From positions 95,623,158 through 95,687,157 of the forward strand of contig NC_057718.1 of the NCBI RefSeq assembly GCF_004010195.1: a stretch of 64,000 nt of DNA, read 5' to 3'. The notes beneath the pieces are model-generated. The model worked only from the letters and a program-made list of their open reading frames with translations. It was not told the origin of the DNA and searched no databases. The DNA is from Chiloscyllium plagiosum. Lineage: Eukaryota. Each line of letters begins with the position of its first letter. Position 1 is the stretch's first letter. The position numbers and the translations under genes are program-made. Positions 9,755 to 62,285 of this stretch are shown here, one piece after another.

Positions 9755-10230
9755 CAAGATCTCTACAGGGTGGAAGCAGGCAATTCGGCCCATCCAGTCC
9801 ACACTGAACCTCTAAAGAGCATTCTACCCAGATCCACCCCATCCCTGTAACCCTGTAGTCCCCATGGCTAATGCACCTAACCTACACATCCCTGGACACT
9901 TTGAGCAATTTAGCATGGCTAATGCACCTAACCTATACATCCCTGGACACTTTGAGCAATTTAGCATGGCTAATGCACCTAACCTACACATCCCTGGACA
10001 CTTTGAGCAATTTAACATGGCTAATCCACCTAACCTACACATCCCTGGATGCTATGGATTATTTACCATGACTAATGCACCCAACCTCCACATCTATGGA
10101 TGATGGGAGGAAACCAGAGCACCTGGAGGAAATCCTTGAAGACAATGAGCAAACTCCACACAGTCCCCTGAGGGTGGAATCAAACCCAGGTGTCTTGTGC
10201 TGTGAGACAGCAGTGCTAACCACTGATCCA
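9755..10230 (-). mobile_element. HE1 SINE with internal 51-bp tandem expansion
   Basis: HE1 head at ~10180-10225; unit atggctaatgcacctaacctacacatccctggacactttgagcaatttagc at 9864, 9915, 9966, 10017 and partial at 10068. Confidence 0.9.
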
Positions 10231-10557
10231 CAGGGCTGCCCTGTGATGAATTGCACCAACATGTCTCATTAACCAGTTTTACTGTGTTTTCCCTCTGGGA
10301 GAACTTTTTTTGTTTGAAGGATACCTTTCCAAATGGATTAGTAATTGTCAATCTCCATATGAAACTGTTGCATGTAAATAGATGCTTTATTAAAGTATTT
10401 ACTGACGATATCAGGTAGATGAGCCTATTTTTGGCAGGGGAGCTGATAATTAGTAGCAGAGGTGAACATAGAGAACAGGGGGTGGTTGGGAAACACACCA
10501 TGGTGAGAGATCAGTCATGCCAGATCAGTTGTCAATTTTAAATCTGAGATAGGTAAT

Positions 10558-12471
10558 TAAAACAACTGCACTGGGGCTGGTATCCTGTCACCAAGTCACC
10601 CTGTATTTACACATGCACAGTACATGTATTCTGACCAGCCAGCTGAGAGCCAGTCCCTGGATTGAGGAGACTCTCTGATACACCTGTTCATTTCTTTTCC
10701 TTTCTCCCACACTGCTACTGTACAGCAGGAGTGCCTATGTTTCCCCACAACACCCGTGTTGTAAGTGTATATGTCCAGTGATTCAGTAACGACACAATGT
10801 GCAAATAATTTTATTTCAATATTTCCAAACACCCATGTGGCCAGTGAACCAACAACAAGCAAAGCCTGTTAAGGGCAATGCTTTCATGGAGAAAGTGAAG
10901 GGGGGCACGGGGCGGTAGGGATTAAATCAAAATAGAACTGGAGGGGTGAGATTCCTGTTCAATTTTTTTTCCAGCACCCATGTTATGTGTGTGCAGGTGT
11001 AGGACACAGTGAAGAATAAGGGAGCAAATCTTTATTTATATTCCACCAGCAGGAAGAAAGGGAACACCAGAGTGACAAGCAAAGCCCTTCTCATCAGAGG
11101 GCAATGCTGCATGATCAAAAAAGTGAAGGGGAGGGCAGGGATTAAATCAAAATAGAGTGGGAGTAGGAAATAAGACACTCCACTCCCTGAAGTGCCCACC
11201 TCTCCCTGAAAATCTTGAGTGTGTTGGTGGACACTGCGTGCTCCTTCTCCAGGGACATTCTGGGCTTGAATGTAACCTCAGAGGAGGGGCAGGCAATCAG
11301 CCATAATGACCCCCTCCACGGCCCCCTGCCTGGACTTCGAGACTCCTCATCTTTTCTTATTCTTTCTTTTCCTTTTTGTTTCAAAATAATCACAACAAAC
11401 GATAAAGGAAATCAAAAATCAAAAATGTCTACCTGAAACAAGGGCAAGAGAACAAAGCAAACTCTCCTCCTCAGTAGGAAACGCCAACAGCAGTAATAAG
11501 ATACACTGACTGTGTGGTCCAGGCAGTTCAGAGGTCAGTCCCCTCCCTAACACACAAAATGGAGAGTCCCTCACCACTGATCCAGCTCCCTCAGAGCCAG
11601 CTATCAGAGTGGACAGAACCTCTGACGTTTCTGTTTTTTAAATTCGTTTTTTTTCCCCTTTCCCCACACTACCATCTAACAGAGGTAGTGCTTATTTTTC
11701 CCCAGCTCCCATGTCATGTGTGTGCAGCTGTCGAACACAGTGAAGAACAACCAGTTACAAACAATGCCCTTCTCAAAGGGCAATGCTGTGTGATCAAACA
11801 GTGAAGGGGAGGGCAGGGATTAAATCAAAATAGAGTTGGAGGGGGAAATAATGCTCTTCACTCCCTACAGTGCCCACCTCTCCCTGAACAGCTCAAGGGT
11901 GTTGGTGGACACCGCGTGCTCCTTCTTCAGGGACACCTGGGCTCTAACATAACCACGGAGGAGGGGCAGGCAATTGGCCCTAATGACCCCCTCTACGGCC
12001 CCCTGCCTGGACCTGGAGATGCATGTTCATTTTTTTTTCCTCAGAGTCTGCTCTCAGGATGAACAGGATCTCTCACACTCCTGTTTTGTTTTTTCTTTTT
12101 CTTCTTTTTTTTCTCCAGCACTCGTGTTGTGTGTGTGCAGGTGTGAGACACAGTGAAAGACACAAGGTGAGACACATGTTCTTTTTGTTCTTATTCCCCT
12201 GACACTCCTGGTTATTTTTTTTTCTCTCTCCTTTTTCTTTTTTTTCTTCTCTTTTTTTTACCCCCACACTACCGCCTAACTGCGGTAGTGCTTATTTTTT
12301 CCACAGCACCCATGTTGTGTGTGTGCAGATGTGAGACACAGTGAAACACAAGATGAAACACATGTTCATATCTGTTAGCCAGGGCTCCCTGATTGGCCCA
12401 GGTTAACAGTCCCAGTCAGGGATCTAATACTCAGCAAGATCCACCTGACCAACCTCATTCCAATCACTGTA
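10558..12471 (-). mobile_element. Short LTR-like element (halves 10558-10691 and 12358-12471) split at its TATA box by a LINE array
   Basis: Both halves align colinearly with the uninterrupted copy 29352-29587; duplicated junction acacctgttcat 10680-10691 / acacatgttcat 12358-12369. Confidence 0.75.
10692..12357 (-). mobile_element. Head-to-tail array of five truncated Tx1/L1-like LINE ends
   Basis: Units start with poly-T at ~10692, 10962, 11637, 12087, 12215; shared 3'UTR (cagcacccatgttgtgtgtgtgcag..); units 2 and 3 encode an SLEKEHAVSTNTL..FRERWA.QGV-type peptide recalled as Tx1-clade ORF2 C-terminus. Confidence 0.7.
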
Positions 12472-12799
12472 TATCAATATCTTTGTTTGGCAAAGAGGTT
12501 CAGGGAAATGAGCTAAAGGGGGTTACAGTATATAGATTTAGGCCACAAGCTGTTGAGTGCTGGAATGAGCTTGAGGGTCTGAATGAAACACTCTTATTCC
12601 TGTGAGAATGGGAATGTACAAGAGCGTGGTGAGATGGGAGCACACCTTGAGCTTCTGCTCACTTGCTTCCTGTTGACCATTGTGACCTTGGTGATCCAGG
12701 TCACCAAGTAATAGGTAGACCCTGTGCTGCTGACCGGTTTGATGATCACTCCTGTCGAGTGCCTCACTCCCCAAACAAAGCAAATTGCATTTTTGTATC

Positions 12800-21603: not shown

Positions 21604-22043
21604 TTTAGTGATTGTAACAAGGTCAGACAGCTGGAACTCATAGAATGAGTTCCCTAATTGGACTAGACTAACAGCCTCAATCAGGGAATCCTGGCTGACA
21701 GATATAAACAGGATTAGAGTAGTGCTGGAAAAGCACAGCAGGTGAGGCAGCATCCGAGGAGCAGGAAAATTGATGTTCCTGATGAAGGGCTTTTGGCCGA
21801 AACGTCGATCTGCTTGGATGCTGCCTGATCTGCTGTGCTTTTCCAGCACCACTCTAATCTGGACTCTAATCTCCAGCACCTGCAGTACCCACTTCGGCCT
21901 AAATATAAACAGGAGTCTCAGGGGCTCTGTTCACTCTGAGGGTTGGCTGTGAGGGAGATGGATCAATGTCAAGGACCTTCCAGGCATAAATAATGATTGT
22001 AAATAAAGGGTGACGGGATGCCAGCCTCTGAGGAGCTTTTTCA
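21604..22043 (+). mobile_element. Short LTR-like element with P1 fold-back inserted at the TATA box
   Basis: tttagtg...caatcaggg...gatataaacagga...aaataaa...tttca; flanks ctgac/gtgac; homologous to 29352-29587. Confidence 0.7.
21714..21902. mobile_element. Penelope-like P1 fold-back mini-element
   Basis: Inverted arms; TSD atataaacagga 21702-21713 and 21903-21914. Confidence 0.85.
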
Positions 22044-24225: not shown

Positions 24226-24594
24226 CTGACCCACTCTGCCACAGCTCTCAGCTTATAATGATTCACCTTTATTTCCCAAGAGAAAAAGGTCACCGCATAT
24301 TTCAAACACGAGCTTTTATAACATTTTGTATTCATGATATGAATTATTATCAATTCATACACAAAAGATGATTATTTTGCTAATCACGTTGGCTTCGGGT
24401 GTTATTCAACCCTGGGCTTTTACCAATGCTAAAATAAAATAAATGCTCTTCCTTATTTGGCTTATGTCATATCCAGGAGCAGTTGAGCTGCAACGTAGTC
24501 ATTTCACTGAGGTACGTTGTTTTCTCTGAAACATTTTTAATCACTTTCTATATACACTTAGATACAGTTTCATTTCTTCAGCAAGCAAAACTCT

Positions 24595-26195
24595 AATAGA
24601 CGCATTGGTAATCATTTTCCAATGTTCGAAAGATTCAGGATCAGTTCCCGTAGATTGGAGGGTGGCTAATGTCCCACTTTTCAAGAAAGGAGGGAGAGAG
24701 AAAACAGAGAATTATAGACCAGTTAGCCTGACATCAGTGCTGGGAAAGATGCTGGAGTCAATTATAAAAGATGAAATTATGACTCGTTTGGATAGCAGTA
24801 ACAGGATAGATCAGAGTCAGCATGGATTTACAAAGGGGAAATCGTGCTTGACTAATTTTTTTGAGGATGTAACTATGAAGATAGACAAGGGAGATCCAGT
24901 GGATGTCGTGTACCTGGACTTTCAGAAAGCTTTTGATGAAGTCCCACTTAGGAGATTAGTGAGCAAATTTACGGCACATGGTACAGGGGGCAAAATACTG
25001 ACTTGGATTGAAAATTGGCTGGCTGACAGGAAGCAAAGATAGTGATAAACGGGTCCCTTTCGGAATGGCAGGTACCAGTGGGGTACCACAAGGTTCGGTG
25101 CTGGGACCGCAGCTGTTTGCAATATACTTTAATGATAGAGATGAAAGTATTAAAAGTAATATTAGCAAATTTGCTGATGACACAAAGCTGGGTGGCAGGG
25201 TGAAATGTGAGGAGGATGTTATGAGAATACAGGGTGATGTGGACAGGCTAGGTGAGTGGACAGATGCATGGCAGATGCAGTTTAATGTGGATAAATGTGT
25301 GTTTATCGACTTTGGTGGCAAGAACAGGAAGGCAGATTACTATCTAAATGGAGTCAGGTTAGGTAAAGGGGAAGTACAAGATCTAGGTATTCTTCCTGAA
25401 GAAGGGCTTATGCCCGAAACGTCGATTCTCCTGTTCCCTGAATGCTGCCTGACCTGCTGCGCTTTTCCAGCAACACATTTTCAGCTCATTCTTGTACATC
25501 AGTCAATGAAAGCAAGCATGCAGGTACAGCAGGCAGTGAAGAAAGCTAATGGTATGCTGGCCTTCATAACAAGAGGAATTGAGTATAGGAGCAGAGAGGT
25601 CCTTCTACAGCTGTACAGGGCCCTGGTGAGACCACACCTGGAGTATTGTGTGCTGTTTTGGTCTCCAAATTTGAGGAAGGACTTTCTAGCTATTGAGGGA
25701 GTGCACCATAGGTTCACAAGGTCAATTCCCGGAATGGCGGGACTATCATATGTTGAAAGATTGGAGCGATTGGGCTTGTATACACTTGAGTTTAGAAGGA
25801 TGAGAGGGGATCTGATTGAGACGTATACGTTTATTAAAAGATTGGACACTCTGGAGGCAGGAAGCATGTTTCTGGTGATGGGTGAGTCCCGAACCAGAGG
25901 ACACAGTTTAAAGATAAGGGGTAGGCCATTTAGAACAGAGTTGAGCGGAAACTTCTTCACCCAGAGAGTGGTGGGTGTATGGAATACTCTGCCCCAGAAG
26001 GCTGTGGAGGCCAAGTCTCTGGATACATTGAAGAAAGAGATGGATAGAGCTCTTAAAGATTATGGAAGCAAGGGTTATGGGGATAAGGCAGGAACAGGAT
26101 ATTGATTGTGGATGATCAGTCATGATCATAATGAATGGAGGTGCTGGCTCGAATGGCCAAAGCCTGCACCTATTGTCTATGGTCTATTGTCTAAT
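24595..26195 (+). mobile_element. CR1 LINE, 5'-truncated degenerate ORF2 (RT) with nested 99-bp PLE insertion
   Basis: ORFs 24605-25042 (NYRPVSLTS, QHGF, YLDFQKAFD) and 25008-26105 ([16 protein letters not shown]); (ctattgt)-like tail. Confidence 0.95.
25395..25487 (+). mobile_element. P1 Penelope terminal fragment with hammerhead-like core
   Basis: cctgaagaagggcttatgcccgaaacgtcg...; TSD attctt 25389-25394 and 25488-25493. Confidence 0.8.
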
Positions 26196-29351: not shown

Positions 29352-29587
29352 TGAAATAACTCCAAGGAGGCTGGAACCCAGTCACCTACTCACCCTTTGT
29401 TTACATGTGTGTAGTACATGACCCTGACCCAGCCAGTTTAGAGCTAGCTCCTAGAGTGAACAGAACCCCTGACAAACTTGTTTATATCTGTCAGCCAGGG
29501 CTCCCTAATTTAACCAGGTTAACAACCCTATTCACAGAACTTGCATCCTATGAGATCCACCTGGCTGACATCATTCCAATCACTACA
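29352..29587 (-). mobile_element. Uninterrupted ~236-bp solo LTR-like element
   Basis: Minus strand starts TGTAGTG, ends TTATTTCA; TATA gatataaac; flanks ccaaa/ccaat (5-bp TSD, one mismatch). Confidence 0.7.
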
Positions 29588-60371: not shown

Positions 60372-62285
60372 CAGTTAGGGGGCTTGAGAGTTATAAATTA
60401 GCCAGAAAAGATCGAAAGAGAGGGCTAAGAAGAGCAAGGACAGGGCATGAGAAGTTTTTGGCAGATAGGATCAAGGAAAATCCTAAGGCCTTCTATAGGT
60501 ATATCAGGAATAAAACAATGACTAGAGTAAGATTAGGGCCAATCGATGATAGTTGTGGGAAGTTTTGTGTGGAATTTGAGGACGTGGGGAAGCACTTAAT
60601 AAACACTTTTTATCAGTATTCACACTGGAAAAGGGCAATGTTTGTGAGAATATAGAGATATGGGCTACTAGATTAGATGGGCTTGCGGTTGACAAAGAGG
60701 ACATTTTAGAAATTTTGGAAGATCTGAAAATAGATAAGACCCCTGAGCCAGATGGGATTTATCCTCGGATTCTCTGGGAAGCCAGAGAGGAGATTGCAAA
60801 GCCTTTAGCTTTGATCTTTATTTCTCTTTGTCAACAGGAGTAGTGCCAGAAGACTGGAGGATAGCAAATGTTGTTCCCTTGTTTAAGAAAGGGAGTACGA
60901 ACAACCCTGGTAATTGTAGGCCAGTGAGCCTTACTTCGGTTGTGGCTAAGGTGTTGGAAATGGTTATAAGAGATAGGATTTATAATCAACTGGAAAGGAA
61001 TAACTTGATTAGAGATAGTCAACACGGTTTTGAGAAGGTTAGGTTGTGCCTCACTAACCTTATGGAGTTCTTTAAAAAGGTGACAAAACAGATGGATGAA
61101 GGTAAAGTGGTTGATGTGGTGTATATGGACTTCAGTAAGGTGGTTGATAAGGTTCCACACAGTAGACTATTGCACAAGATACAGCGTTTCGGGATTGAAG
61201 GTGATTTAGCGGTTTGGATCAGAAATTGGCTCGCTGAAAGAAGACAGAGGGTGGTGGTTGATGGGAAATGTTCATCCTGGAGCTCAGTTACCAGTGGTGT
61301 GCCGCAAGGATCTGTTTTGGGGCCACTGCTGTTTGTCATTTTTATAAATGATCTGGATGTGGCTGTAGAAGGATATGTTAGTAAATTTGCGGATGACGCC
61401 AAGGTCGGCAAAGTTGTGGATAGTGCCGAAGGATGTTATTGGTTACAGAGGGACATGGATAAGATGCAGAGCTCGGCTGAGAAGTGGCAAATGGAGTTTA
61501 CTGCGGTAAATTGTGAGGTACTTAACTTTAGAAAAAGTAACTAGAATGCTGAGTACTGGGCTAATGGTAAAATTCTTGGCAGCTTAGATAAACGAGAGAT
61601 CTCGGTGTCCTGGTGCATTAGTCCCTGAAAGTTGCTACCCAGGTTGATAGGATTGTTAAGAAGGCATATGGTGTGTTGGCATTTATTGGTAGGGGGATTG
61701 AGTTTTGGAGCCACAAGGTCATGCTTCAGCTGTACAAGACTCTGGTAAGGCTGCTCCTGGAGTATTGCGTACAGTTCTGGTCACCGCATTATGTGGAAGG
61801 ATGTGGAAGCTTTGGAAAAGATTCAGAGGAGATTTACTAGGATGTTGCCTCATATGGAAAGAAGGTCCTATGAGGAATGGCTGAGGGAGCTGAGGCTGTT
61901 TTCGTTGGAGAGAAGAAGGTTGAGAGGTGACTTAATCAAGATGTAGATGATAATTGGATGGTAATATAGGGGGGACAGTGAGAGCCTTTTTCCTTGGATG
62001 GTCAAGGTTAACACGAGGGGGACATAGCTTTAAATTGAGGGGTGATAGATTTAGGGAAGATATCAGGGATAGTTTCTTTACTCAGAGAGTGGCAGGGGCG
62101 TGGAACAGCCTGCCTGCAACAGTAGTAGACTCGCCAACGTTAAGGGCATTTAAATGGGCATTGGACATATATATGGATAATAATGGAACGGTGTAGGTTA
62201 GATGGGCATCAGATTATTTTCACAGATTGGTGCAACATCGAAGGCCGAAGGGCCTATACCGCGCTGTAACAGTCTATGTTCTATG
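60372..62285 (+). mobile_element. CR1/HER1 LINE, 5'-truncated degenerate ORF2
   Basis: IKENPKAFYRYI; ORF 60828-61544 RT core ([25 protein letters not shown]); tail gtctatgttctatg. Confidence 0.95.

Follow-up and report, generated by a model that had tools for sequence, protein, structure and literature searches.

Repeated insertion of a Tx1-type LINE, probably target-preferring, at the TATA-like box of a solo LTR

The window analysed here is the whole 64-kb stretch of DNA, in which five 5′-truncated LINE 3′ ends, all in the same orientation, interrupt a solo LTR on the minus strand at its TATA-like box. The 5′ half of this host LTR (12369..12471, minus strand) is 76% identical to 29470-29584 and carries a CCAAT-like word upstream of the box, and its 3′ half, counted together with the sixth of the target words described below (10558..10690, minus strand), is 72-73% identical to the copy at 29352-29587. 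This second copy (29352..29587, minus strand) is an intact solo LTR with TG..CA ends and 5-bp flanks alike at 4/5 positions, and it served as the empty-site reference. Matching of both host halves to it bears out the preliminary description of this DNA, which had proposed that an LTR was split at its TATA box. A third copy, of another subfamily, lies on the plus strand at 21606..22043; its 5-bp flanks are likewise alike at four of five positions, it contains AATAAA, and an unrelated element of 190 bp, whose duplication is 11 bp long, splits it at the same box. The 190-bp element, putatively Penelope-like, has an internal inverted repeat and occurs at 13 loci in the window. All three LTR copies in the window are solo, and only these three were available for comparison. 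Comparison with copies 29352 and 21606 placed both host halves in one subfamily (the 5′ half is 73% identical to copy 29352 vs 67% to copy 21606). The assignment as LTRs draws on the TG..CA ends of copy 29352, the near-matching 5-bp flanks of copies 29352 and 21606, and TATA-like and AATAAA-like words; a clear target site duplication was not seen in the flanks of the host copy.

Read along the minus strand, the array leads from the LTR 5′ half through target word 1 (12354..12368, the 5′ junction) into unit A (12215..12353), which consists of the end of the LINE 3′ UTR with a terminal hairpin (~12266-12291) and an A-rich tail (12215-12260), and is followed by a 19-bp LTR piece with a second A-rich run (12183..12214) and by word 2 (12168..12182). 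Unit B (12088..12167) is a short piece of 3′ UTR with a tail, stops short of the hairpin and is 89% identical to A over 64 nt; behind it lie a 49-bp LTR piece with a run of nine A (12030..12087) and word 3 (12015..12029). Unit C (11638..12014) holds the ORF2 C-terminus (frame 12020-11823, with one in-frame TAG), the 3′ UTR, the hairpin and a tail, after which come a 78-bp LTR piece of the other subfamily, a multi-copy stretch of ~180 bp and a 33-nt A-rich run (together 11350..11637), and then word 4 (11339..11349), 3 bases shorter than the rest. Unit D (10962..11338), 86% identical to C, again contains the ORF2 C-terminus, as found by tblastn with the protein P0017, with a frame break near 11260, a 3′ UTR stopping before the hairpin and a short tail that leads straight into word 5 (10947..10961). 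Unit E (10691..10946) comprises the last ORF2 codons, 3′ UTR, hairpin and tail, is 58-70% identical to the other units, and adjoins word 6 and the LTR 3′ half. All these features lie on the minus strand. Taken together, the LINE units display 5′ truncation, A-rich tails and target site duplications, and in B and D the 3′ end is at an internal A-run ahead of the terminal hairpin. The hairpin is found at 12266-12291 (A), 11665-11690 (C) and 10708-10734 (E) with a variable loop; it folds in all three, yet its z-scores were only -0.76 to 0.16 and its covariation was not above that of shuffles. A search of Rfam returned nothing credible in the array or in the 190-bp element of copy 21606-22043.

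Six local copies of a ~15-bp target word thus separate the five units, the duplications beginning (minus strand) at 12368, 12182, 12029, 11349, 10961 and 10690. The TATA-like box of the host (12365-12370) reads TATGAA and continues into the first of these words, and all six carry a G in place of the A of the two other LTR copies, indicating that the host box was already TATGAA before the first insertion. Outside the array, 14-mers with at most four mismatches to the target word occurred at 4.7e-4 per base and strand, compared with eight within the 1.9 kb of the array, and of 42 A-rich runs in the rest of the window not one was followed by a target-like 14-mer. Each of the five motifs at which the preliminary description had placed the junctions was found where it had been reported, next to an A-rich tail on the minus strand; two of them are indeed local junctions, and those at 11630, 12080 and 12207 belong to pieces resembling other LTR copies. 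The same description had held the family to be specific for a core promoter. Of this, the TATA-like position stands, and a promoter requirement is not supported: the host had TATGAA in all six copies and was nevertheless hit five times. An intact TATA box is therefore likely not needed for insertion, and what is recognised is likely a DNA sequence rather than a working promoter.

The LTR pieces behind the tails of units A, B and C (pieces A, B and C) all lack the G variant (0/3), and each ends in a second A-run that is followed by the host's own word. Piece A matches copy 21906 at 16/18 positions vs 13/18 for the host's own 3′ half; for piece B overall identity does not separate the host from copy 21906; piece C is 75% identical to copy 21906, 67% to copy 29352 and 58% to the host 3′ half. 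At diagnostic sites, defined as positions where the host and 29352 agree against 21906, piece C was like 21906 at 9 vs 3 like the host, piece B at 4 vs 2, and piece A at 1 vs 0. Comparison of the three LTR copies thus indicates a foreign origin strongly for piece C, modestly for B and weakly for A. The post-tail pieces are likely 3′ transductions from donor copies at the same site in other LTRs: the 19-bp piece, weak when taken alone, and the 49-bp piece would each be a carried donor flank, and 11350..11637 is likely one long carried donor flank. Transduction of this type is reported for the site-specific LINEs R1Bm and R7Ag in PMC7265360; they are like the window LINE in showing read-through with 3′ transduction by a site-specific element, and differ in belonging to the R1 clade with rDNA targets. 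Within the long flank, a stretch of ~180 bp at 11383-11559 follows piece C. In three organisms its upper part has about 45-70 copies and its lower part 10-20, so that it is a repeat linked to the donor LTR.

The locus was present in public sequencing runs of organisms A, B and C. Over 10400-10988 and 12439-12650, contigs of run X1 matched with 0-1 differences; X5 and X10 (organisms B and C) contain the unit-E junction as well. For the part covered by contigs, no listed piece of which spans the whole array, the locus is no assembly artefact. With single-copy depth set at 0.4-0.6 (0.36 in four bins), depth in run X23 gave rough estimates of 7,000-10,000 copies for the 3′ part of the LINE and of no fewer than 2,000-4,000 copies for the LTR at 80% likeness. 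Read mapping masked the tails of A and B, and the loose ends that would give the share of flanks were dropped; for comparison, a Tx1 family is counted as target-specific in PMC4494074 when >20% of its copies are flanked by one target type. The junction rows are limited to joints with both sides on the reference and hence show position within the LTR, not exclusivity. Among the 12 of 800 junction rows listed, all from X10 (organism C), four LINE junctions are absent from the window locus. In two of these (12288>12363 and 11966>12364) a truncated LINE 5′ end is joined to the LTR 5′ half directly after the word, and a third (11207>11575) consists of an LTR piece, an A-run, the word and the next LINE and is another instance of a carried flank; in the fourth (11812>12138) the spacer is only 8/13 like the target word by a count by eye. 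The word was thus seen in 3/4 of the outside LINE junction rows listed. The same site in the same orientation at independent loci, in line with the preliminary description, is accordingly found in the likely donor of piece C and in these three rows. No host DNA turned up when metagenome, viral and prokaryote contigs were scanned with patterns and proteins.

Only the last 66 residues of ORF2 are represented in the window, and endonuclease or reverse transcriptase (RT) sequence of the LINE family is absent from its 64 kb. The peptide of unit C aligns with the last 64 residues of the alligator protein P0016 (38% identity), up to its very end. P0016 has APE, RT and zf-RVT domains (PF03372, PF00078 and PF13966), and its closest named relatives are 'transposon TX1 149 kDa' or YTX2 proteins; its match to human L1 ORF2 ends at residue 857, ahead of the peptide region. 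Among long homologs the closest is P0017 (58% to the peptide). In a quick tree it grouped with a turtle protein and then with proteins of the alligator, within the clade that contains most of the Tx1-named proteins and separate from the two proteins having an L1 ORF1 domain (SH-aLRT 97-100). The tree included 40 of the 43 proteins chosen, aligned from the RT motif to the C-terminus (three were dropped for absence of the anchor motif), and its Tx1 labels are database names rather than curated Repbase families. The sister of P0017 in the tree, P0067, is a turtle protein cluster of 403 members. The best matches of the peptide include proteins of the whale shark and of Chiloscyllium punctatum, which makes a shark the likely host. 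An HMM search of the representatives with the 52-aa peptide gave 11 hits, two of which (P0010 and P0012) are repetitive chance hits, and E<1e-3 was reached against 2/71 closer and 0/49 more distant proteins; with so few direct hits, the link from the peptide to named Tx1 proteins runs via P0016 and P0017. A word-based protein search, Pfam and the ESM Atlas returned no match for the 52-aa peptide. The Tx1 assignment of the preliminary description is supported in that the peptide matches the end of an APE-RT ORF2 and P0017 groups with Tx1-named proteins, and with P0017 as its proxy in the quick tree the LINE appears to group with Tx1, not L1. Three of the database proteins, P0007, P0011 and P0016, are named CutA, FAM241B and rhombotin-1 and contain or consist of Tx1-type ORF2 sequence; these names are likely gene-model errors. 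Weak RT matches (24-27% identity) at 24569-24988 and 60825-61478 represent other, non-Tx1 LINE fragments.

Units A-E are only 58-89% alike and of unequal length, and the array is therefore not one amplified unit; tandem amplification of a single insertion, which the preliminary description had named as refuting its reading, does not account for it. Unit E is the most diverged and is likely the oldest as judged from its sequence, and unit A is likely the youngest. Read depth peaked on A and C and was least on E (run mapping, with 80% likeness for E), reaching ~4,100 reads at 12303 in unit A (run X23). Words 1-3 have one change in common and words 1-2 a second. Such nested changes are expected if newcomers entered the upstream-most word, and we infer the insertion order E, D, C, B, A; word 6 also has the second change of words 1-2, for which an independent origin is then required. 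A and B begin at the same LINE position, and C and D at almost the same one. Microhomology, or annealing to the preceding unit, may account for these common 5′ break points, and A/B could be one duplicated event.

We consider it likely that the array was built by a target-preferring Tx1 family whose endonuclease recognises LTR sequence and cut the site at the TATA-like box anew each time. The APE endonuclease would nick the bottom strand within the TATA-like box, the T-rich 3′ end at the nick would prime reverse transcription on the A tail of the LINE RNA, and a second cut ~15 bp downstream would give rise to the ~15-bp target duplication. Recognition would include LTR sequence upstream of the cut, and each newcomer would enter the upstream-most word, the sole one that retains this upstream context. 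The donors would have been located at the same site in other LTRs, with transcripts reading past the tail into the LTR, and units A, B and C would thereby have carried in donor LTR stretches of 19, 49 and 78+ bp, each with a second A-run.

A different account, which we regard as unlikely, is that of a general hot spot: the AT-rich, TATA-like box of a very abundant LTR would draw several retroelements, and the LINE would be only loosely selective, with an L1-like T-tract/A junction and many copies elsewhere. The unrelated 190-bp element occupies the same box in copy 21606-22043, the chance being ~0.01 that one of 13 such insertions falls within 8 nt of one of three boxes, and the consensus-type box does contain an L1-like junction (for the L1 consensus as given in PMC1950540). 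However, this element lies at the word in only 1/13 of its window loci and elsewhere in the other 12, and its duplication differs, being 11 bp long and beginning further upstream. The host word, with TGAAC, is moreover a poor L1-type site, yet it took five insertions whose duplications are of constant length, and the donor flanks and three of the four outside junction rows listed show the target word, against a hot spot. Less probable still is that, once one or two insertions had occurred, part of the array grew as DNA, through local duplication or through recombination or conversion with arrays present in other copies of the LTR. Such growth would suit the common start positions within A/B (89% alike) and C/D (86% alike), and recombination could likewise bring in foreign LTR pieces. 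Within both pairs, however, the 3′ ends, tails and following pieces differ; the succession of foreign piece, second A-run and the host's own word is that expected from an RNA intermediate; both host LTR halves are of one subfamily; and DNA-level growth would still require arrays at the same site elsewhere. That newcomers homed on the poly(A) tails left by previous copies is hardly credible: the LTR sequence behind every tail does begin at the same base, but the nested changes place newcomers at the upstream word, with no tail beside it, and the LTR pieces would have to be long, variable target duplications, a candidate that we rejected because piece C is far closer to another subfamily than to the host flank and is without the G variant.

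Relative to known systems, the targeting family that we favour has close counterparts. Among crocodilian Tx1 families, Tx1-8_Crp and Tx1-4_AMi are reported to prefer LTR retrotransposons (Kojima 2015, PMC4494074), so that an LTR target, taken as undescribed in the preliminary description, was already on record. These families share LTR targeting with the window LINE, and the nearest full-length relatives found include an alligator protein; they differ in that their hosts are crocodilian and the host here is shark-type, and the comparison concerns the LTR element as a target. In the same source, SINEU-3 and Tx1-Mar form sequential tandem insertions in Mariner-N4_AMi, sandwiching a 16-bp TSD. 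This resembles the present array as sequential tandem insertion around a TSD inside another transposon, but the target is a DNA transposon, and carried donor flanks are not described in section 14 of PMC4494074. The endonuclease of Tx1L from Xenopus laevis nicks almost exclusively its target (PMC1950540). Tx1L is, like the window LINE, an APE-type element that picks one site in another transposon, Tx1D; unlike the LTR, Tx1D is a piggyBac-type DNA transposon, and specificity is biochemical for Tx1L and read from sequence for the window LINE. In the literature searched (Repbase, Dfam and most subscription journals being outside its scope), no paper was found on a shark Tx1 aiming at LTRs, and no such target is named in passages of PMC3747384, PMC8455134, PMC4640811 and bioRxiv 10.64898/2026.06.26.734816. 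Tx1-like repeats are noted in the whale shark in PMC8455134.

Aiming at mobile elements is thus known from frogs and crocodilians, and the window offers a clean new example of the principle rather than a new principle. The locus adds the carried donor flanks, the insertion order and a sign that an intact TATA box is dispensable, and as a likely shark case with a base-precise site it adds to the small number of LINEs whose targets are other mobile elements. As a record of insertion order and donor flanks, the array opens site recognition (upstream context and tolerance of a changed TATA box) and read-through to study from the sequence by itself. If real, an APE endonuclease with specificity for a 15-bp word would be a further model for the evolution of LINE targeting. 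A broader but doubtful reading is that an old vertebrate Tx1 lineage of sharks, turtles and crocodilians acts as a hyperparasite of LTR promoters: it would insert between the TATA box and the poly(A) signal, borrow the upstream promoter and home to further LTRs via read-through RNA carrying the target sequence, disabling LTRs as it spreads. About five tandem 51-bp repeats lie 450 bp from the array, at 9839-10117, within a copy of an abundant SINE-like family.
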